From the NCBI GenBank assembly GCA_023411645.1, contig JAEYON010000068.1, forward strand, positions 44,599-108,598: a stretch of 64,000 bases of DNA, written 5' to 3'. Positions 22,290 to 45,558 of this stretch are shown piece after piece. Each line of letters opens with the position of its first letter. The stretch's first letter is position 1. The notes under the pieces were generated by a model, which did not search any database, was not told where the DNA came from, and was given only the letters and a program-made list of their open reading frames with translations. Position numbers and translations under genes: made by a program. The stretch is from Bacillota bacterium (lineage in GTDB: Bacteria > Bacillota > Clostridia > Acetivibrionales > DTU013).

Positions 22290-23060
22290 CTATAGCACAT
22301 AGACCATTCGCCCGATTCTTGCCTTTAGCGGTTTTGACCAGAGCCATTTGTTTGTGGCACTGTCATCAAAGTAGTATAGTGCACCGTTACTTGGATCACT
22401 GCCATGAAGAGCCTCAAGGGCAGCATTTCTGTCATTCTGCGTTGCAGGATTGTTGATCCAGCCGTTTTCAACCGGGGTGAACTGATAATATCCGTTACTG
22501 CTCACTTCATATATGACGGATGTTATCGTATCAGGAAAAAGATCGCTTTTAACTCTGTTTACAACAACTGCGGCGACACCTACCTTTGCGGAATAGGGCT
22601 CGCTTTCCGCCTCGGCTCTGACCAGTCTGGCCAACAGATCAAGCTCGGCCTCCGTATAAGGTATAACTGCCTTGCCTGTATCGACAATAGCATTGGCAGT
22701 GCCTGATGGAATATTCAGCTTTTGCCCGGGATAGATCATATTATCCCATTTGTTGTTGGCTTTTCTCAGTGAGCTTAATGATACCCTGTATTTATCAGCG
22801 ATCTTTATAAGTGTATCTCCGCTTTTTACTGTGTGGGTATCCGCTCGGACATATAATTGCTGCCCAGGATAGATCATGCTGCCGGAGAGCTTGTTGTCCG
22901 ACATAATGGTATTGGCTGAGGTGTTGAACATTTGACCGATTTTATACAATGAATCGTTTTTCTGCACAGTATAGCTTGCGCCAAATGCTGTATTTACTTG
23001 CATAAAGCATGACAATAAAATACCAGCAACCAATGCGGTACTTTTCCTAATGGTTTTCAT
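22290..23060 (-). CDS. Secreted cell-wall hydrolase: signal peptide, 2 LysM domains, SleB-type (Hydrolase_2) catalytic domain
   Basis: 256 aa. Signal peptide MKTIRKSTALVAGILLSCFMQVNTAFG. Two LysM repeats (YTVQKNDSLYKIGQMF..., HTVKSGDTLIKIADKY...). C-terminal LLARLVRAEAESEPYSAKVGVAAVVVNRV...YQFTPV...ALYYF. Confidence 0.85.
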   Translation of the reverse strand: MKTIRKSTALVAGILLSCFMQVNTAFGASYTVQKNDSLYKIGQMFNTSANTIMSDNKLSGSMIYPGQQLYVRADTHTVKSGDTLIKIADKYRVSLSSLRKANNKWDNMIYPGQKLNIPSGTANAIVDTGKAVIPYTEAELDLLARLVRAEAESEPYSAKVGVAAVVVNRVKSDLFPDTITSVIYEVSSNGYYQFTPVENGWINNPATQNDRNAALEALHGSDPSNGALYYFDDSATNKWLWSKPLKARIGRMVYVL

Positions 23061-23075
23061 ATGTTTCCTCCTATT

Positions 23076-23210
23076 GCCTCCGGGGTTAGTTATCGGATTC
23101 GGGTAGAGGCACCCTACTCATTTCGAGATTCACCCTTAGGAAACAGCCAGCGATATCGCAAGCGCATCCATTTGTTGCGTCCCCCGTACTCCTTTTGGAG
23201 ATTCGGCATT
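23076..23210 (-). promoter_or_regulatory. c-di-AMP riboswitch (ydaO/yuaA motif) in the 5' leader of the LysM/SleB-type hydrolase
   Basis: Minus-strand read: GCCGAATCTCCAAAAGGAGTACGGGGGACGCA...GGGTGAATCTCGAAATGAGTAGGGTGCCTCTACCCGAATCCGATAACTAACCCCGGAGGC. This matches the two pseudo-symmetric ydaO cores (AAUC..ACGGGGGA and GGUGAAUC..CCCGAAUCCG..AGCUAACC). An extended -10 TGTTACAAT lies at 23224-23232 and SD AGGAGG follows the motif. Confidence 0.85.
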
Positions 23211-23341
23211 TATTAATAAATATATTGTAACAAAGGCCTCTCCCCAATTTCCAGACTATATTTATGGCAGAGAAGGAAATATGGTACAATATATGAAGGA
23301 ATGAGGTATTTGCAAATAAATTGGGTCGGGTAGGTGGAAAT

Positions 23342-37494: not shown

Positions 37495-37521
37495 AAAATC
37501 AAATTATTACCTTAAAAAACC

Positions 37522-37550
37522 TTGACTAGAAAAAGATGATATGCTATACT
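37522..37550 (+). promoter_or_regulatory. Sigma-A-type promoter of the leader ORF / nitrogenase-like operon
   Basis: TTGACT (37522-37527), 17 nt, TATACT (37545-37550). The inverted repeat TATGCT-N7-AGCATA (37540-37558) overlaps the -10. Confidence 0.55.
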
Positions 37551-37597
37551 AAAGCATAGTAAATCTATATGTTTAATCAGAAATAGGAGAGTCAACT

Positions 37598-37756
37598 ATG
37601 AACAAGCATATAAACACCGTCAATACAGTTGTTTGCAGCGTTTCTGCCATGTGCATGATGCGAGTGTCTTGTTGCATCAGTATGTCAATGATGCGAATGT
37701 CTTGCTGCACCTGTATGCCCATGTGTTGTGACAATCCTATTCCCAAACCCGCATGA
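37598..37756 (+). CDS. 52-codon Cys/Met-rich leader ORF (candidate attenuation leader peptide; shorter than the 60-aa ORF-track cutoff)
   Basis: SD AGGAGA (37585-37590) lies 7 nt before the ATG. Translation: MNKHINTVNTVVCSVSAMCMMRVSCCISMSMMRMSCCTCMPMCCDNPIPKPA*, with 9 Cys and 9 internal Met within residues 13-44. An internal 22-nt repeat encodes MMR[V/M]SCC twice. A terminator hairpin starts 13-16 nt after the stop. Confidence 0.6.
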   Translation: MNKHINTVNTVVCSVSAMCMMRVSCCISMSMMRMSCCTCMPMCCDNPIPKPA

Positions 37757-37769
37757 TTTTCCGTCTGTG

Positions 37770-37809
37770 AAAGGCACAGTTCGTGTAAAATGCGGACTGT
37801 GCCTTTTTT
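37770..37809 (+). terminator. Intrinsic terminator / attenuator between the leader ORF and the nitrogenase-like genes
   Basis: GGCACAGT (37773-37780) pairs with ACTGTGCC (37796-37803). The stem extends upward through TCGTG/TGCGG (G-U pairs) to a 5-nt loop and downward via AAA/TTT. T6 follows at 37804-37809. Confidence 0.75.
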
Positions 37810-37902
37810 AATCCTCGAAAAAGCAACTGAAAAAAGCAGCTCTGTGTCGGGCAGGGGCTCGCTACTTGCTGACCACAAATCTCTCAAAACAGGAGGAGAA
37901 TA

Positions 37903-39378
37903 ATGAGCAAAGTCAATTTATCCTTGCCGGAGGTGCAGATCCGGGAAATCCGTATTAACTCAATAACCGGTTACCAGGGCAGTGCCAGGGAATTGGTTGA
38001 CTGCTCCCGCCGCGGACTGAAGGACAAAAACCGATCTTTCAGCCAGTGCCTTGGATGTGCAACCTCCAAGGCGGCTTGTATGACAATTATGGTTCAGGAC
38101 GGCGCGGTCATCAGCCACGGACCGGTGGGCTGCTCGTCCTGCTATCACGAGTTTGCCTTTACCTACCGTGTCAATTCACCGCTGCGGGGCGTGGAAAATC
38201 CTACCCAACGCAAAATCTACTCCACCAATCTGAAGGAGAAGGACACAGTATACGGCGGTGGAAAAAAGCTGGCAAAGACAATCCGTGAGGTTTATAACCG
38301 CACACACGCCAGAGTAATCTTTGTGCTGACAACCTGCGCGGCGGGCATAATCGGCGATGATGTGAACAGCATCTGCGATGAAGCGGAGGATGAACTGGGT
38401 GTTCCCGTGGTGGCGATTTTCTGCGAAGGCTTCAAGTCCAAGGTTTGGACGACAGGTTTTGACGCAGCCTACCACGGCATTGCGCGCAAGTTGATTGAGC
38501 AGCCCCGCCGGCGAAGAAATGACATCATCAATGTCATAAACTTTTGGGGATCTGATATTTTTAAAGACTGGTTCGCGGAATTCGGTGTGATACCCAACTA
38601 TATCACACCCTACTCCACACTCGAAAGCATCCGTTGGTCATCCGAGGCGGCAGCGACGGTGCAAGCTTGCTCGACGCTGGGCTCCTATCTGGGTGCCGCG
38701 CTGGAACAGCAATTTGGTGTTCCCGAGCTGCCGACAGCACCGCCTTACGGCATCGCCCAAACCAACCGCTGGTTCCGCGCCCTTGGCAAGTTGCTGGGAA
38801 AGGAAGATGTGGCCGAACGGGTGATTGCTGAAAAGAGGGAAAAATATCTGCCCCAGATAGAAGCAATCCGGGAAAAGCTCACGGGGAAAACCGCCTATGT
38901 CACAGCAGGCGCCGCCCATGGTCATGCTCTTCTGGGTGTGCTGGCAGAACTTGGCATAAAAGCTCAGGGAGCCGCCATCTTCCACCATGACCCGCTTTAC
39001 GACAACGGCGTGCCCGAGGGCGATCAGTTGGCTCAGCGAGTAAGCGACTTTGGCGATGTTCCCAACTTCAATGTCTGCAACAAGCAGGAGTTTGAACTGG
39101 TCAATTCGCTCAACCGTATCCGCCCTGACCTTCTTCTGGCACGGCATGGCGGCATGACACTCTGGGGCGCAAAGCTCGGCATCCCGTCGCTGCTCATCGG
39201 CGATGAACACTACAGTATGGGATACGAGGGATTGGTCAAATATGGTCAGCGAATAATTGAAACGCTGGAAAATGATGAATTTGTCAAGAATCTGGAGCGG
39301 CACGCCATCAACCCCTACACCAAATGGTGGCTGTCTCAGGAACCATATACATTTTTGCAGGGAGGTTCGGGTAAATGA
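37903..39378 (+). CDS. Nitrogenase-like component 1, alpha (NifD/NifE-like) subunit
   Basis: 491 aa with SD AGGAGGAG. ISHGPVGCSSC and VLTTCAAGIIGDDV match NifD P-cluster Cys contexts. By-eye alignment also places VQACSTLGSY and GDEHYSMGYEG at the NifD Cys275 and His442 cofactor-ligand positions. Confidence 0.85.
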   Translation: MSKVNLSLPEVQIREIRINSITGYQGSARELVDCSRRGLKDKNRSFSQCLGCATSKAACMTIMVQDGAVISHGPVGCSSCYHEFAFTYRVNSPLRGVENPTQRKIYSTNLKEKDTVYGGGKKLAKTIREVYNRTHARVIFVLTTCAAGIIGDDVNSICDEAEDELGVPVVAIFCEGFKSKVWTTGFDAAYHGIARKLIEQPRRRRNDIINVINFWGSDIFKDWFAEFGVIPNYITPYSTLESIRWSSEAAATVQACSTLGSYLGAALEQQFGVPELPTAPPYGIAQTNRWFRALGKLLGKEDVAERVIAEKREKYLPQIEAIREKLTGKTAYVTAGAAHGHALLGVLAELGIKAQGAAIFHHDPLYDNGVPEGDQLAQRVSDFGDVPNFNVCNKQEFELVNSLNRIRPDLLLARHGGMTLWGAKLGIPSLLIGDEHYSMGYEGLVKYGQRIIETLENDEFVKNLERHAINPYTKWWLSQEPYTFLQGGSGK

Positions 39379-40718
39379 GCAAAGTCGAATTGATAGAACA
39401 GGAGCGTTACGTCTGCGCTATTGGGGCTCTGCAAAGCGTGGTTGCTATTCCCCGTGCCGTGCCCATTTTGCATTCCGGCCCCGGGTGCGGGGACATGGTT
39501 CAGGGCTTCTTTGGGCACTCCACCGGATATGCTGGAGGCAGCACCTCTCCATGCACAAATTTTTCAGAAAAAGAAGTAGTGTTTGGCGGCATCGATCGTC
39601 TGCGGCAAATCATTGCCAACACATACAAAGTATTGGATACGGATTTACAAGTGGTACTTACAGGCTGCACGGCGGGCATAGTAGGCGACGATGTAGATAG
39701 CCTCGTGGAGGAGTTTCGCAGCGAGGGCAAACCCATCGTGTCTGTAGAAACGGCTGGATTCAAGTGCAATAACTTTGAGGCGCACAGCTTGGTGGTTAAT
39801 GCAATCATCGATCAGTATGTGGATGGTTTTTCTGAAGAGAATCCTGCATGCAGTGAAAAGAATACAGTGAACCTGTTTGCCTCCCTTCCATACCAGGACC
39901 CGTTCTGGAAAGGAAACCTCGCTGAATACAAGCGGCTGCTTGCCGGTATCGGGCTCAAGGCTCAAGTACTGTTCGGGCCGCAGTCTGGCGGAGTAAAGGA
40001 GTGGCAGCAGATTCCCCGTGCGAACTTCAATATCCTTATTTCCCCATGGTATGGACTGCCTATTGTCGAGAACCTGGAACAAAAGTATGGTCAGCCATTC
40101 ACACATTTTATGCATATTCCTATTGGGGCGAACGCAACAGAAAAATGGCTTAGACAGGTCATTGCCTTCGCCAGGGAGCAGGGTGCGGAAATTGATGAGG
40201 AAAAAGCCGAAGCCTTTTTACGCAGTGAAATTCATGCCTATTATGAAGAAATTGACAGCCTGGCTACCTTCTTGTTGGAATTCCGCTACGGACTGCCGAA
40301 TCATGTTCATATTTTCCACGACGCAGGATATGTTCTGGGCCTATCCAAGTTTCTTCTTCACGAGGTTGGGGTAGTGCCCAAAGAGCAATTTGTTACCGAT
40401 AATACACCGGAGCGATTCCATGAAGGGATAATCGCAGATATAAAGAGCACTTCCGATAAGCGGGACATCCCGTTGTTTTTCGAGTCGGATGCAGGACGGG
40501 CGCAAGACATTCTGCGCGGCATTTCCCATAGCGGTCGCGGACTCATTATTGGCAGCGGCTGGGAAAAGGAACTGGCCGCAGAAAAGAATACGGACTTTCT
40601 TACTGCGGCGCTGCCATCTTCTTACCGTTTGGTGCTTACAACCAACTACGCCGGTTTTAGCGGCGGATTGCGTGTGATTGAGGACATTTACAACACGGTT
40701 CTGCCGACGTACCGATAG
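39375..40718 (+). CDS. Nitrogenase-like component 1, beta (NifK/NifN-like) subunit
   Basis: 447 aa. Overlaps the upstream stop by 4 nt. YVCAIGALQS, ILHSGPGCGDMV and VLTGCTAGIVGDDV match NifK P-cluster Cys contexts. Confidence 0.85.
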   Translation: MSKVELIEQERYVCAIGALQSVVAIPRAVPILHSGPGCGDMVQGFFGHSTGYAGGSTSPCTNFSEKEVVFGGIDRLRQIIANTYKVLDTDLQVVLTGCTAGIVGDDVDSLVEEFRSEGKPIVSVETAGFKCNNFEAHSLVVNAIIDQYVDGFSEENPACSEKNTVNLFASLPYQDPFWKGNLAEYKRLLAGIGLKAQVLFGPQSGGVKEWQQIPRANFNILISPWYGLPIVENLEQKYGQPFTHFMHIPIGANATEKWLRQVIAFAREQGAEIDEEKAEAFLRSEIHAYYEEIDSLATFLLEFRYGLPNHVHIFHDAGYVLGLSKFLLHEVGVVPKEQFVTDNTPERFHEGIIADIKSTSDKRDIPLFFESDAGRAQDILRGISHSGRGLIIGSGWEKELAAEKNTDFLTAALPSSYRLVLTTNYAGFSGGLRVIEDIYNTVLPTYR

Positions 40719-40727
40719 GAGGCCGCT

Positions 40728-41063
40728 ATGAACGCACGGATTGCTTTCGCCAGTACGGGCGATTATATTGATCAGCACTTTGGCTCCGCACGGTATTGGC
40801 AGGTGTACGATCTTGCAGAAGATGGAACCTGCCGGCATGTTGAAACCCGGAGGACACAGGCCAAATGTCAGGGAAACTGCGAAGGCGGTTTTGACCACTT
40901 GCTCAGGACGCTGGAGGACTGTGAAGCCGTATTCGTAAGCAAAATTGGTCAATCCGCAGCGGCGTTTATGATTGGCCGCGGTAAGCGGGTATTTGAGGCG
41001 GCGGGGGCAATCGATGAAATTATTGATCAAATTTCGGGTGAAAACCTGTTGGAGGAGGGCTAA
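40728..41063 (+). CDS. NifX/NafY/NifB-C-terminal-type FeMo-cofactor-binding domain protein
   Basis: 111 aa. RIAFASTGDYIDQHFGSARYWQVYDL...AVFVSKIGQSAAAFMIGRGKRVFEA is the typical dinitrogenase cofactor-biosynthesis domain pattern. Confidence 0.8.
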   Translation: MNARIAFASTGDYIDQHFGSARYWQVYDLAEDGTCRHVETRRTQAKCQGNCEGGFDHLLRTLEDCEAVFVSKIGQSAAAFMIGRGKRVFEAAGAIDEIIDQISGENLLEEG

Positions 41064-41066
41064 ACC

Positions 41067-41942
41067 ATAGCTTTTTCATTTGAGGAATTAACAAAATTCC
41101 ATCCCTGTTTTGCGGTGGGAGCAAAAAACAATAAAGGACGCGTCCATCTGCCGGTTTCACCAGGCTGCAACATCAACTGCCTCTTTTGCGACCGCAGGCT
41201 GAACAATATCGATCAGCGGCCTGGCGTCACTTCGAGAATTATTTCCCCGCAGGAAGCTGTGGATGTCGTGCGTAAGGCGGTTGCCCTCTGCCCGGGTATC
41301 ACGGTGGCAGGAGTGGCCGGACCGGGAGACACTTTGGCGACGCCATATGCACTGAGAACCTTTCGGTTAATCAAAGCGGAGCTGCCTGATATCATCAAGT
41401 GCATGAGCACAAACGGGTTGCTTTTACCGGACTTCGCAGATGAAATCATTGATGTGGGCATAGATTCTCTCACTGTCACAGTCAACGCCGTTGACGCGGA
41501 AATACAGTCTCAAATCTGCAGCGGCATAACATACCAAGGCAAGCGCTATGAGAACACTACCGCTGCCGAGATCCTGATTACCAATCAGCTTGCCGGGATC
41601 AAGAAGGTTGCAGATGCCGGAATCACTGTCAAGGTCAATACCGTGCTGATTCCCGAAATCAACGTGGGGCATGTGGCGGAGGTCGCAAGGACAGTCAGTG
41701 AAGTGGGTGCGCGGATTTATAATATTATTCCGCTGATCCCCCAACACAAGCTCGCGTGGTGTTCCGCACCCGGCTGCGATCTGATTAGTAGTACACGCAT
41801 AGAAGCCGAGCGGTACATCAAGGTTTTCCGGCATTGCCAGCGGTGCCGAGCCGATGCGGCGGGAATCCCCGGCGGCGCAGATGTGTCGGAACAACTTTTT
41901 ATTAGCTCTGTAAGGCTGGAAAATACTTTCTCGCACGGCTGA
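41067..41942 (+). CDS. NifB-like radical SAM cofactor-maturation protein (start uncertain: ATA 41067 with SD, or GTG 41115 as in the ORF track)
   Basis: RVHLPVSPGCNINCLFCDR (CxxxCxxC), GVAGPGDTLA, CMSTNGLLLP, KVNTVLIPEIN and HCQRCRADAAGIPGG align with NifB. The in-frame codons 41064-41114 encode ...FHPCFAVGA, matching the NifB N-terminal HPC motif, yet contain no ATG, GTG or TTG. Confidence 0.8.
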   Translation: MAFSFEELTKFHPCFAVGAKNNKGRVHLPVSPGCNINCLFCDRRLNNIDQRPGVTSRIISPQEAVDVVRKAVALCPGITVAGVAGPGDTLATPYALRTFRLIKAELPDIIKCMSTNGLLLPDFADEIIDVGIDSLTVTVNAVDAEIQSQICSGITYQGKRYENTTAAEILITNQLAGIKKVADAGITVKVNTVLIPEINVGHVAEVARTVSEVGARIYNIIPLIPQHKLAWCSAPGCDLISSTRIEAERYIKVFRHCQRCRADAAGIPGGADVSEQLFISSVRLENTFSHG

Positions 41943-41975: not shown

Positions 41976-42857
41976 ATGTGCAGCGACTGTGATATGTGCG
42001 ACACGGCCGACCATACCTTTATGCCGATGATGGCGAAAATCAACTTGTGTTTGTGGAGGGGGAAAGATGATATGGGATATATAGAAATAAAAGATCTGCA
42101 CAAGGCCTTCCATATTCGAGGACAGTCGCTCGATGTTTTGAAGGGTGTAGATCTCAGCATAGAAAAAGGCGAAATTTTCGGCATTATAGGTTATTCCGGT
42201 GCGGGAAAATCAACGCTGGCACGATGCATTAATCGGCTTGAGGAGGCTGATAAAGGCGAAATCATAGTGGACGGAGTAGATATCAGATCCTTAAGCAAAA
42301 AGAATCTGTTGCGGGAACGCCGCAACATCGGAATGATTTTTCAACAGTTCAATCTGTTTGAGGCTCAAACTGTGTACGAAAACATCTCTTATCCTTTAAA
42401 AATATCCGGGGTGCCGAGCCGTGAAATAAGAGAGCGTGTACTTGAAGCGGCAGAAGTTGTGAGTTTATACGACAAGCTAGACGCTTACCCGGGCGGATTG
42501 TCCGGAGGACAAAAACAACGAGTCGGAATCGCGAGGGCTATCGTCGGAAGACCGAATGTATTACTAAGCGACGAGGCGACAAGCGCGCTTGATCCTCAGA
42601 CTACGCTTTCGACACTCGAATTATTAGAGGAAATCAACGCAAAGACAGGTATCACTATATTGATGATAACTCACGAGCTTGACGTAATCAAGTACAGTTG
42701 CACACGGATGGCCGTGCTTGAAAACGGTATCATTATCGAAAGCGGCAAAACAACCGAGGTTTTTGGAAACCCCAAAAGCAAAACGGGAGAACTATTCTTT
42801 AAGGTTTACACCGAATTTCGGAATCAAAAGGAATACGCAGGAGGTGATGGAATTTGA
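41976..42857 (+). CDS. metN: Methionine-type ABC transporter ATP-binding protein (alternative start ATG 42072)
   Basis: Walker A GYSGAGKST, signature LSGGQKQRV and Walker B LLSDEATSALD. The canonical MetN N-terminus MGYIEIKDLHKAF begins at 42072 (SD GGAGGGGG). The ORF also opens at ATG 41976 (SD AGGTGGTGG), adding a 32-aa Cys/Met-rich extension. Confidence 0.88.
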   Translation: MCSDCDMCDTADHTFMPMMAKINLCLWRGKDDMGYIEIKDLHKAFHIRGQSLDVLKGVDLSIEKGEIFGIIGYSGAGKSTLARCINRLEEADKGEIIVDGVDIRSLSKKNLLRERRNIGMIFQQFNLFEAQTVYENISYPLKISGVPSREIRERVLEAAEVVSLYDKLDAYPGGLSGGQKQRVGIARAIVGRPNVLLSDEATSALDPQTTLSTLELLEEINAKTGITILMITHELDVIKYSCTRMAVLENGIIIESGKTTEVFGNPKSKTGELFFKVYTEFRNQKEYAGGDGI

Positions 42858-43564
42858 GCTTGCTTGATACCCCGCTATGGGATGTCATTAAGGGCAGTTT
42901 CGCTTATGAGGTATGGGAAAGGGTCACTCCGGCGATTCTTGAAACACTTTATATGACAGGCGTAGCGTCATTAATAACATTGGTGTTCGGGCTCGCTCTC
43001 GGAATACTTATGACGGTGACCAACCCCCATGGACTAATACCTCTCAGAGTGTTTTATGCAGTATCGGGATGGTTTATCAATATCTTGCGCTCACTGCCGC
43101 AGATGGTGATGATAATTTTACTGATACCTGTAGCACGGTTCTTTTTTGGAAAAAGCTATGGAACGAACCCTTGTATGATAGCTATAGCCGCTTGTCTGAT
43201 TCCGATGTATGCGCGTATTGTCGAAAGCAGCATACTTGAAATCTCAAAGGGCAAGATCGATGCCGCAAAGTCAATGGGAAGCACGTATACTCAGATTATA
43301 TTTCGGATTCTGTTACCGGAAACACTTCCATCGCTCATCCGAGGCTTTACGGTAACGGTTATCGCCGTCTTGTCAATGACCGCACTAGCTGGAATGTTCG
43401 GCGCGGGAGGTGTCGGAGACATAGCGGTCAGGTTCGGTTATCAGCGGTTTCAGCATGATGTGCTGTTTGCAGCAGTTTACGTTTTAATTGCACTGGTGCA
43501 GATTATCCAGTTTCTTGGGGATTTCTTATCAAAGAGAATCCTCCGGAAACGAAATCTGATTTAA
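42854..43564 (+). CDS. metI: Methionine-type ABC transporter permease
   Basis: 236 aa, about 5 TM segments, MetI-like EAA region (KIDAAKSMGSTYTQIIFRILLPE). Overlaps the metN stop by 4 nt. Confidence 0.85.
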   Translation: MSLLDTPLWDVIKGSFAYEVWERVTPAILETLYMTGVASLITLVFGLALGILMTVTNPHGLIPLRVFYAVSGWFINILRSLPQMVMIILLIPVARFFFGKSYGTNPCMIAIAACLIPMYARIVESSILEISKGKIDAAKSMGSTYTQIIFRILLPETLPSLIRGFTVTVIAVLSMTALAGMFGAGGVGDIAVRFGYQRFQHDVLFAAVYVLIALVQIIQFLGDFLSKRILRKRNLI

Positions 43565-43598
43565 TAAAAAATTCAACACAAATAAAGGAGAATAAACC

Positions 43599-44462
43599 AT
43601 GAAAAAATTTCTTAATTTCTTACTCTCAGCAATACTTATACTGTCATTTGCAGCTTGCTCGAACAAGAACGTGCAAACGTCAGGTGAAGCGGTCGAAATT
43701 ATTGGTATCGCCGACCTTGTGCCCCATTCGGAACTCATTAAACATGTCACTCCCAAGCTTCTTGAGCAAGGAGTAAAAGTAACCCTAGCAACAACGGCTG
43801 CGGACAATACAACCAATGAAAAGACAAATGCAGGTGAAATAGACTTTAACTTTTTTCAACACAATCCTTATCTTCAGTCAGAGAATGAAGCAAACGGGTT
43901 TAAGCTCTCAAATGCTGGAGATATTCATGTTGAGCCGATTACAGCATATTCTGACAAGTATAAGGATGTGTCTGAAATTAAGGATGGCGATACGGTCGCG
44001 ATTCCGAATGACGGTACGAACGAGTATCGGGCGCTGCGTATCCTTGAGCAGAATGGTTTCATTAAGCTGAATACTGAAACTGCAAACAGCTTGTCGGCTT
44101 CCATAGCTGATATTGTTGAAAATATTAAAAATCTCGAAATTGTTGAGATTGACAGTGCGCAGATTATCCCTACCAAAGACGACTACGATTTCTTCATCAC
44201 AAACACTAACAAGGTATTAGAGGCGAAAATCACTTCGACGAGGCTGTTCAGTGAGGGCGGAGACAGTCCTTATGCAAACATAATAGCTGTGAACTGGAAC
44301 AACCTCTCTACTGAAAAGACGGAGGCGGTTAAGAAACTTGTTGCGGCGCTCCAGTCCGACGATACACGAAAATTTATCGAGGAAAAGTACAACGGTGCGG
44401 TTATACCGGCGAAACTTCAAAATAATCCTGGTGATGCGTCCGCAAAACCTACTGCCGAATAG
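43599..44462 (+). CDS. metQ: MetQ/NlpA-family substrate-binding lipoprotein
   Basis: 287 aa. Lipoprotein signal MKKFLNFLLSAILILSFAAC. NlpA-family core (FNFFQHNPYL, VAIPNDGTNEYRALRILEQNGFIKL). Confidence 0.85.
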   Translation: MKKFLNFLLSAILILSFAACSNKNVQTSGEAVEIIGIADLVPHSELIKHVTPKLLEQGVKVTLATTAADNTTNEKTNAGEIDFNFFQHNPYLQSENEANGFKLSNAGDIHVEPITAYSDKYKDVSEIKDGDTVAIPNDGTNEYRALRILEQNGFIKLNTETANSLSASIADIVENIKNLEIVEIDSAQIIPTKDDYDFFITNTNKVLEAKITSTRLFSEGGDSPYANIIAVNWNNLSTEKTEAVKKLVAALQSDDTRKFIEEKYNGAVIPAKLQNNPGDASAKPTAE

Positions 44463-45335
<873 letters not shown>

Positions 45336-45356: not shown

Positions 45357-45392
45357 ACCCCGCGAAGTCACATAACTGTGATTTTGCGGGGT
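45357..45392 (+). terminator. Terminator-like hairpin ending the nitrogenase-like operon
   Basis: ACCCCGC (45357-45363) pairs with GCGGGGT (45386-45392), with inner TCACA/TGTGA pairing. The trailing TATTTATA is a weak U-tract. Confidence 0.55.
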
Positions 45393-45558
45393 TATTTATA
45401 TTAGGGACATATCTGTGTAGCCTGACACTCAAAACAAAACACACTGTGTGAATTTTCTGAATTACAGTATTCTTTTTCCTGAAAATATGGTAGCATATTA
45501 TAAGTCAGTTTCTTAGGACGGTAATGCCAGAAAATGACAAATTTGCCTTATATCCTTT

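Follow-up and report, generated by a model that had tools for sequence, protein, structure and literature searches.

An ATA codon at the orthologous start position of a NifB/MarB-like gene within a Mar-like operon of a Bacillota bacterium

A predicted Mar-like operon and its nifX-nifB junction

The stretch of Bacillota DNA analysed here (64,000 nucleotides, hereafter the window) carries genes in the order NifD-like, NifK-like, NifX-like, NifB-like, MetN/I/Q-like and NifH-like, with CysK-like and Cys_Met_Meta_PP genes upstream (Table 1). The nifD-like to nifH-like genes are one predicted transcription unit, running from a promoter-like site to a terminator-like hairpin. NifK-, NifH-, NifB- and metNIQ-like genes, together with PALP and Cys_Met_Meta_PP genes, make up a sulfur-assimilation neighbourhood that can be compared with the thiol cluster of R. 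rubrum, and the MarD-like subunit retains the [Fe8S9C]-cluster ligands, Cys270 and His429 of MarD corresponding to Cys256 and His415 of the window protein. Judged by homology and gene neighbourhood, on which the class assignment is based, the operon is of a Mar-like (methylthio-alkane-reductase-like) Group IV nitrogenase-like type for sulfur acquisition, with the NifB-like protein as its predicted MarB-type maturase. Group IV nitrogenase-like systems other than Mar include Isr and Nfa, and Mar activity requires MarB or NifB, being undetectable when both are lacking (PMC13474568).

Table 1. Coordinates of the operon and of the features at the nifX-nifB junction (window positions).
Feature	Position	Strand	Evidence or remark
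Promoter-like site	37522-37550		TTGACT-17-TATACT with TG
MarD-like catalytic subunit	37903-39378	+	PDB 9FMG MarD (chain A), E=5e-127; uses NifB product
MarK-like catalytic subunit	39375-40718	+	Uses NifB product
NifX-like gene	40728-41063	+	Nitro_FeMo-Co domain, 111 aa, PF02579 E=5e-19; stop TAA 41061-41063
Extended Shine-Dalgarno (SD) GGAGGAGGG	41051-41059	+	Within nifX 3' end, 7 nt before ATA
ATA, proposed near-cognate initiator	41067-41069	+	Orthologous start codon position; aligns to ATG in L065, L066 and L067
NifB/MarB-like radical-SAM gene	41067-41942	+	291 codons read from ATA
HPCF motif	41100-41111	+	Cys codon 41106-41108, equivalent of MthNifB Cys18 (K1 cluster ligand)
First canonical in-frame start, GTG	41115-41117	+	True start elsewhere; product from GTG lacks the HPC cysteine
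Radical-SAM CxxxCxxC motif (CNINCLFC)	41166-41189	+	Sequence reading and NifB structure alignment
MetN/MetI/MetQ-like ABC transporter genes	41976-44462	+	Pfam ABC_tran, Lipoprotein_9; BPD_transp_1 on near-identical L060
NifH/MarH-like reductase	44478-45335	+	TIGR01287, 459 bits
Terminator-like hairpin, strong	45357-45392		After NifH/MarH-like gene; terminator scan

Two further observations concern the surroundings of these genes. No riboswitch or T-box was recognisable, at E values up to 1, in the leader between the CysK-like and NifD-like genes (37495-37902, ~400 nt), despite the apparently sulfur-related nature of the operon, and an Rfam search of the window returned no element in this leader or at or near the nifX-nifB junction; the sole match above gathering score in the window is a c-di-AMP riboswitch (ydaO/yuaA leader, RF00379) at 23060-23218 on the reverse strand (72.5 bits, E=6.7e-15). 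Downstream of the NifB-like gene, the MetN-like ORF as listed (293 aa) begins with a 32-residue Cys-rich extension (MCSDCDMCDTADH..., 41976-42071) that is missing from its relatives of 261-267 aa, and its true start is probably the ATG of MGYIEIKDL, which is preceded by GGAGGGGG. Relatives have an additional gene between nifB and metN (467 aa, Cys_Met_Meta_PP, in locus L065; a 70-aa ORF in locus L066), of which positions 41976-42071 of the window may be a remnant.

Rereading and translating the window bore out the anatomy of the junction as given in the initial annotation. The NifX-like and NifB-like ORFs share one frame and are separated by a single TAA; the codons from 41064 to 41114 read T I A F S F E E L T K F H P C F A and include no in-frame ATG, GTG or TTG; the first canonical start, GTG 41115, falls downstream of HPCF; and GGAGGAGGG at 41051-41059 is followed by a 7-nt spacer to ATA 41067. 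No near-cognate codon other than ATA occurs from the TAA to GTG 41115, and the TAA ends 3 nt before the ATA. Worked by hand, GGAGGAGGG pairs with a Bacillota-type anti-SD over ~8 positions, G-U pairs included. The TTG at 41080 was considered as a start and discarded as irrelevant, being out of frame and opening an ORF of 3 codons only. No special RNA structure was predicted at the junction (z-score -0.21).

The coding sequence upstream of GTG 41115 and its start codon in relatives

That the stretch before GTG 41115 is real NifB coding sequence, as had been proposed from the sequence motifs, is upheld by agreement between the TIGR01290 (nifB) model, the solved NifB structures and conservation of HPCF. 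The TIGR01290 alignment begins at residue 10 of the extended protein and covers profile positions 9-292 of 441 with 266.9 bits; since this score is below the model cut-off of 343.65, we have filed the protein as NifB-like/MarB-like and not as a NifB equivalog. Solved NifB structures align from residue 5 (PDB NifB 7JMA, E=2e-81). Among 114 homologues H, P, C and F are each at least 97% conserved, and the extended protein keeps 122 of the 123 columns that show at least 97% conservation, the single deviation (Y to F) lying within the ordinary range of homologues. HPCF aligns to H16-P17-C18 of MthNifB (M. thermautotrophicus), which places Cys14 of the query (41106-41108) opposite Cys18. Moreover, CNINCLFC, RVHLP, KCMSTNG and HCQRC all align to MthNifB residues, so that the CxxxCxxC motif, the further K1 ligands (equivalents of His31 and Cys115) and the K2 CxxC (equivalents of Cys260 and Cys263) are all present. 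In MthNifB, Cys18 ligates the K1 [Fe4S4] cluster and also bridges the fused K-cluster, the ligand roles of the other K1 and K2 residues being assigned in the same study (PMC8179604), and the equivalent Cys30 of M. acetivorans NifB has likewise been assigned to K1 (PMC6053413). Only translation from a start before GTG 41115 includes the HPC motif. Because a product begun at this GTG would be without the Cys18 equivalent, GTG 41115 is not the true start; in orthologues its position is occupied by a Val or Met codon inside the protein.

The consequences for annotation are visible in the databases. The entry for this gene, P0079 (99% identical, 227 aa, on the near-identical contigs L060 and L061), has been called from an internal GTG, and the HPC motif and the radical-SAM CxxxCxxC motif are both missing from it. 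With the NifB-like protein truncated by gene callers in this manner, a Mar-type system that is in fact intact would be taken for one without a functional maturase. Two other entries of 275 aa that lack HPC, P0083 (L062, 181-231) and P0105 (L063, 2953-3003), were considered as further cases and rejected as gene-caller artefacts; canonical starts are present 16 codons upstream at the orthologous position, GTG for P0083 and ATG for P0105.

A database search with the extended protein returned homologues that are almost all 291 aa long, exactly the length read from ATA, the closest of them beginning MAFSFEEL...HPCF. Genome loci could be recovered in 59 cases; the HPC motif is present in 54 of these, and in all 54 a canonical start lies upstream of it. 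In most loci this start is an ATG exactly 11 codons before the HPC histidine, just where ATA stands in the window; across more than 50 related loci the NifB-like start is ATG, occasionally GTG or TTG. Wherever the N-terminus aligns without indels, the start codon of the related locus is the one matching ATA 41067. In the closest relatives (L065, L066 and L067; 85-88% amino-acid identity) the junction reads GGAGGAGGcc-TGA-atC-ATG-GCa-TTT-TCA-TTT-GAa-GAA, compared with GGAGGAGGgc-TAA-acC-ATA-GCt-TTT-TCA-TTT-GAg-GAA in the window. The SD is conserved as GGAGGAGG in L065 and L066 and is GGGGGAG in L067; its conservation in relatives that bear ATG indicates that it is ancestral and not compensatory.

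On this comparison, the window carries a G-to-A transition at the third base of the NifB-like start codon (ATG to ATA); its surroundings (SD, stop codon of nifX, stop-NNN-start arrangement) are ancestral, and the codon that has mutated is the start. An ATG-to-ATA substitution is the simplest description of the locus and was not among the options of the initial annotation; it is compatible with a loss-of-function allele too. Of the options that had been listed, initiation at AUA 41067, with or without termination-reinitiation, fits the comparative data, ATA standing at the orthologous start position behind an ancestral SD. Among the loci surveyed, no orthologue beyond this species-level lineage relies on ATA.

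ATA at the orthologous position was also encountered in L064 (JGI 3300042615, 2054-2125, protein P0101), whose NifB-like protein is 79% identical. Here an in-frame GTG lies 3 codons before the ATA and overlaps the nifX TGA (GTGA). L071, a relative of L064, has ATG, and the two junctions are more than one change apart, including a 1-nt length difference. With an in-frame GTG upstream and several changes relative to L071, L064 was rejected as a clean second case of ATA, and the difference between the two loci looks like start-codon turnover with small indels. It is a speculative and rather improbable idea, prompted by the ATA of L064, that loss of ATG at the start codon recurs in the gene family.

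Two further options in the initial annotation were a NifX-NifB fusion of about 404 aa, made by ribosomes reading through TAA 41061-41063, and a fused gene recently split by a nonsense mutation. The one argument for either is that a single stop separates two ORFs in the same frame. A NifX-like gene lies directly upstream of a NifB-like gene in 37 loci, and the two are separate genes in all of them. Across these loci the stop-to-start spacing ranges from -17 to +34 nt, the nifX stop may be TGA, TAA or TAG, and 13 of the 37 spacings keep the frame, the chance level of ~1/3, which makes the shared frame in the window incidental. Furthermore, the best 120 matches, at 227-313 aa, include no fused homologue of ~400 aa, and the stop-NNN-start layout is likewise present in the closest relatives, there with ATG as the start. 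Among bacterial stop codons, UAA leaks least. The variation in spacing, frame and stop runs counter to a read-through fusion, and a split fusion is at odds with the stop being ancestral and the mutated codon being the start; we consider both highly improbable. Comparison of orthologous loci had been put forward as the way to decide whether the stop is conserved, whether an ATG is present and whether the genes are fused: an ATG is indeed found there and fused genes are not, while the stop is ancestral in its position and variable in its codon.

Polymorphism since the substitution

An identical junction, ATA included, occurs in five further contigs, namely L060 and L061, which are the contigs of P0079, and L068, L069 and L070, which were found through their identical NifX-like protein (this protein is identical on 6 contigs). 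The five come from at least four datasets among ENA and Logan assemblies. Together with the window they represent three haplotypes of one species, with 100%, 99.83% and 99.66% identity to the window, and ATA is the sole allele in the sampled population. A scan of JGI metagenomes for an ATG allele of the same lineage with the pattern GGAGGAGGGCTAAACCATNGCTTTTTCATTTGAGGA, which would recover the ATG or the ATA allele, gave 0 matches of either and is therefore uninformative. A difference of a single base from the relatives is also what a sequencing or assembly error over a true ATG would leave; the five other contigs, however, share the junction and yet differ from the window elsewhere, and the presence of ATA in three haplotypes that are distinct at other sites argues against assembly error so strongly that we give this explanation almost no credence.

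Since ATA is common to all three haplotypes, parsimony places the differences among them after the mutation. Synonymous divergence among the ATA haplotypes is ~1.6%, and over this divergence nifB has acquired neither a stop nor a frameshift. The MarD/K/H-like genes show 12 synonymous changes and 1 nonsynonymous change, the MetNIQ-like genes 9 and 1, and the PALP gene 4 and 0. The 12:1 ratio shows that strong purifying selection continues to act on the enzyme dependent on the NifB product. The NifB-like gene itself differs by 2 synonymous changes and a single codon replacement, L106S, confined to the L060/L061 haplotype. This single nonsynonymous event compares with 6-11 expected under neutrality (P=0.0002-0.015); at the local synonymous rate (3 changes in ~595 synonymous sites, by hand) ~3 would be expected in nifB (P ~0.16), and the nonsynonymous to synonymous ratio of 1:2 does not differ significantly from that of the other genes (Fisher P=0.24). 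The test is weakened by low diversity across nifK, nifX and 5' nifB and is suggestive only of purifying selection on NifB after the mutation. Compared with relatives, the NifB-like gene has a dN/dS of ~0.10 and an intact ORF. A relative-rate dN test of the window against L065 and L066, which is dominated by the time before the ATA mutation, gave window-branch ratios of 1.24 for NifB and 1.2 for the NifD-like gene, and the NifB branch shows no acceleration relative to the NifD-, NifK- or NifH-like genes.

Differences between the strains are unevenly distributed. The segment 39323-41312, spanning nifK, nifX and 5' nifB, contains one change in 2 kb. Clusters are found in two short non-coding stretches: 37823-37901, with 5 SNPs in ~80 nt just before the NifD-like start (L068), and 45450-45543, beyond the NifH terminator, with 7 SNPs in ~95 nt (L060). 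Codon 106 of the NifB-like gene (41382-41384) is CTG (Leu) in the window and L068 and TCA (Ser) in L060, L061 and L069; all three bases differ, in haplotypes that are otherwise ~99.7% identical, and the change looks like a multinucleotide substitution.

These data bear on a reading in which ATA is a young loss-of-function allele that silences the NifB-like gene, the ORF being intact through recency and the Mar-like enzyme being served by another NifB paralogue or in the course of being lost. Several points are in keeping with such an allele. AUA is a poor initiator that gives 1-2% of the AUG output in E. coli (bioRxiv 10.1101/063800), and ATA is relied on by no orthologue outside the lineage. 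L106S is non-conservative, the close relatives that were compared having Leu or Phe at position 106, and is one of only two nonsynonymous polymorphisms in the NifD/K/X/B-like genes (the other is the C-terminal K474I of the NifD-like protein). NifB can substitute for MarB in R. rubrum (PMC13474568), so a second genomic nifB could supply the cofactor, and the nonsynonymous deficit in nifB is not significant at the local synonymous rate. Against silencing, the gene has passed through ~1.6% synonymous divergence since ATA arose with one amino-acid change and an unbroken reading frame, and it retains the near-complete set of conserved residues described above. The MarD/K/H-like genes remain under strong purifying selection, and tblastn found no second nifB in the 64-kb window. 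Moreover, an extended SD with the nifX stop 3 nt away is the kind of context in which AUA gives 10-30% in a Firmicute (PMC13009471). On balance we regard a silenced gene as rather unlikely.

Candidate initiation at AUA and comparison with known systems

Our preferred reading, to which we assign a probability of about 0.65, is that attenuated initiation at AUA 41067 yields a full-length 291-aa MarB-like protein that includes the HPC cysteine. The codon has the attributes of a near-cognate start, in that it occupies the orthologous position, no canonical alternative would preserve the essential residues and a strong SD lies at the right spacing. The near-cognate AUA would be paired with initiator tRNA and positioned by the ancestral extended SD 7 nt upstream, and ribosomes terminating nifX translation 3 nt upstream would add initiation by translational coupling. 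Expression would be expected to reach only a small part of the AUG level, and a maturation enzyme needed in catalytic amounts may tolerate this. We infer both the use of AUA and its efficiency from this context and from precedents in other bacteria.

A stronger version of this proposal would have AUA acting as an adaptive translational attenuator instead of a tolerated defect, keeping the NifB(MarB):NifX ratio low and tying synthesis of the maturase to nifX translation and to IF3 or growth state; we hold this to be quite doubtful. If AUA is used at all, a natural nitrogenase-type cofactor maturase would owe its expression to a near-cognate start within an operon, which bears on how little NifB/MarB suffices and is of relevance to the engineering of nitrogenase-like systems. 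The case would add an example of near-cognate starts and no new mechanism.

The nearest precedents are the AUA starts of S. aureus infC, ccpN and the lineage-specific citZ, which have extended SDs and give ~10% of the AUG output, up to 30% in the case of ccpN (PMC13009471). In these genes, as in E. coli infC and pcnB with AUU, a near-cognate codon stands where orthologues have AUG, as it does in the window. The S. aureus AUA cases combine a strong extended SD at normal spacing with attenuated output, and the SD and spacing in the window are alike. The AUA of citZ, found in the S. aureus NCTC 8325 lineage, is a lineage-specific substitution, as is the ATA described here, which is kept in one species-level population only, whereas the near-cognate starts of ccpN and infC are conserved across genera. 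The window gene differs from the S. aureus and E. coli examples in being internal to an operon and beginning 3 nt after the preceding stop, so that coupling or reinitiation may contribute. The S. aureus AUA starts have measured outputs; the AUA start proposed here is a candidate predicted from sequence.

The pairing of NifX-like and NifB-like proteins recalls the canonical NifB-NifX fusions (for example A. vinelandii NifB, model TIGR01290), in which the same two domains cooperate in cofactor-precursor trafficking. In the canonical fusion, however, NifX forms the C-terminal domain of a single covalent chain, whereas in the window, as in its relatives, the NifX-like protein is encoded by a separate upstream gene with its own stop.

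The closer counterpart is MarB of R. rubrum (marBHDK; PDB 9FMG is MarDKH). Like MarB, the window protein is a stand-alone NifB-type radical-SAM protein with HPC, CxxxCxxC and C-terminal Cys motifs, and MarD/K/H-like genes are encoded alongside it. A further likeness lies in the metNIQ-type transporter genes of the operon and the sulfhydrylase-family genes nearby. It differs from R. rubrum Mar in its gene order, D-K-X-B-metNIQ-H with a separate NifX-like carrier gene before B, in its host, which belongs to the Bacillota (Oscillospiraceae-like according to the best genome matches) and is not a proteobacterium, and in the ATA that takes the place of the start codon of its MarB-like gene.
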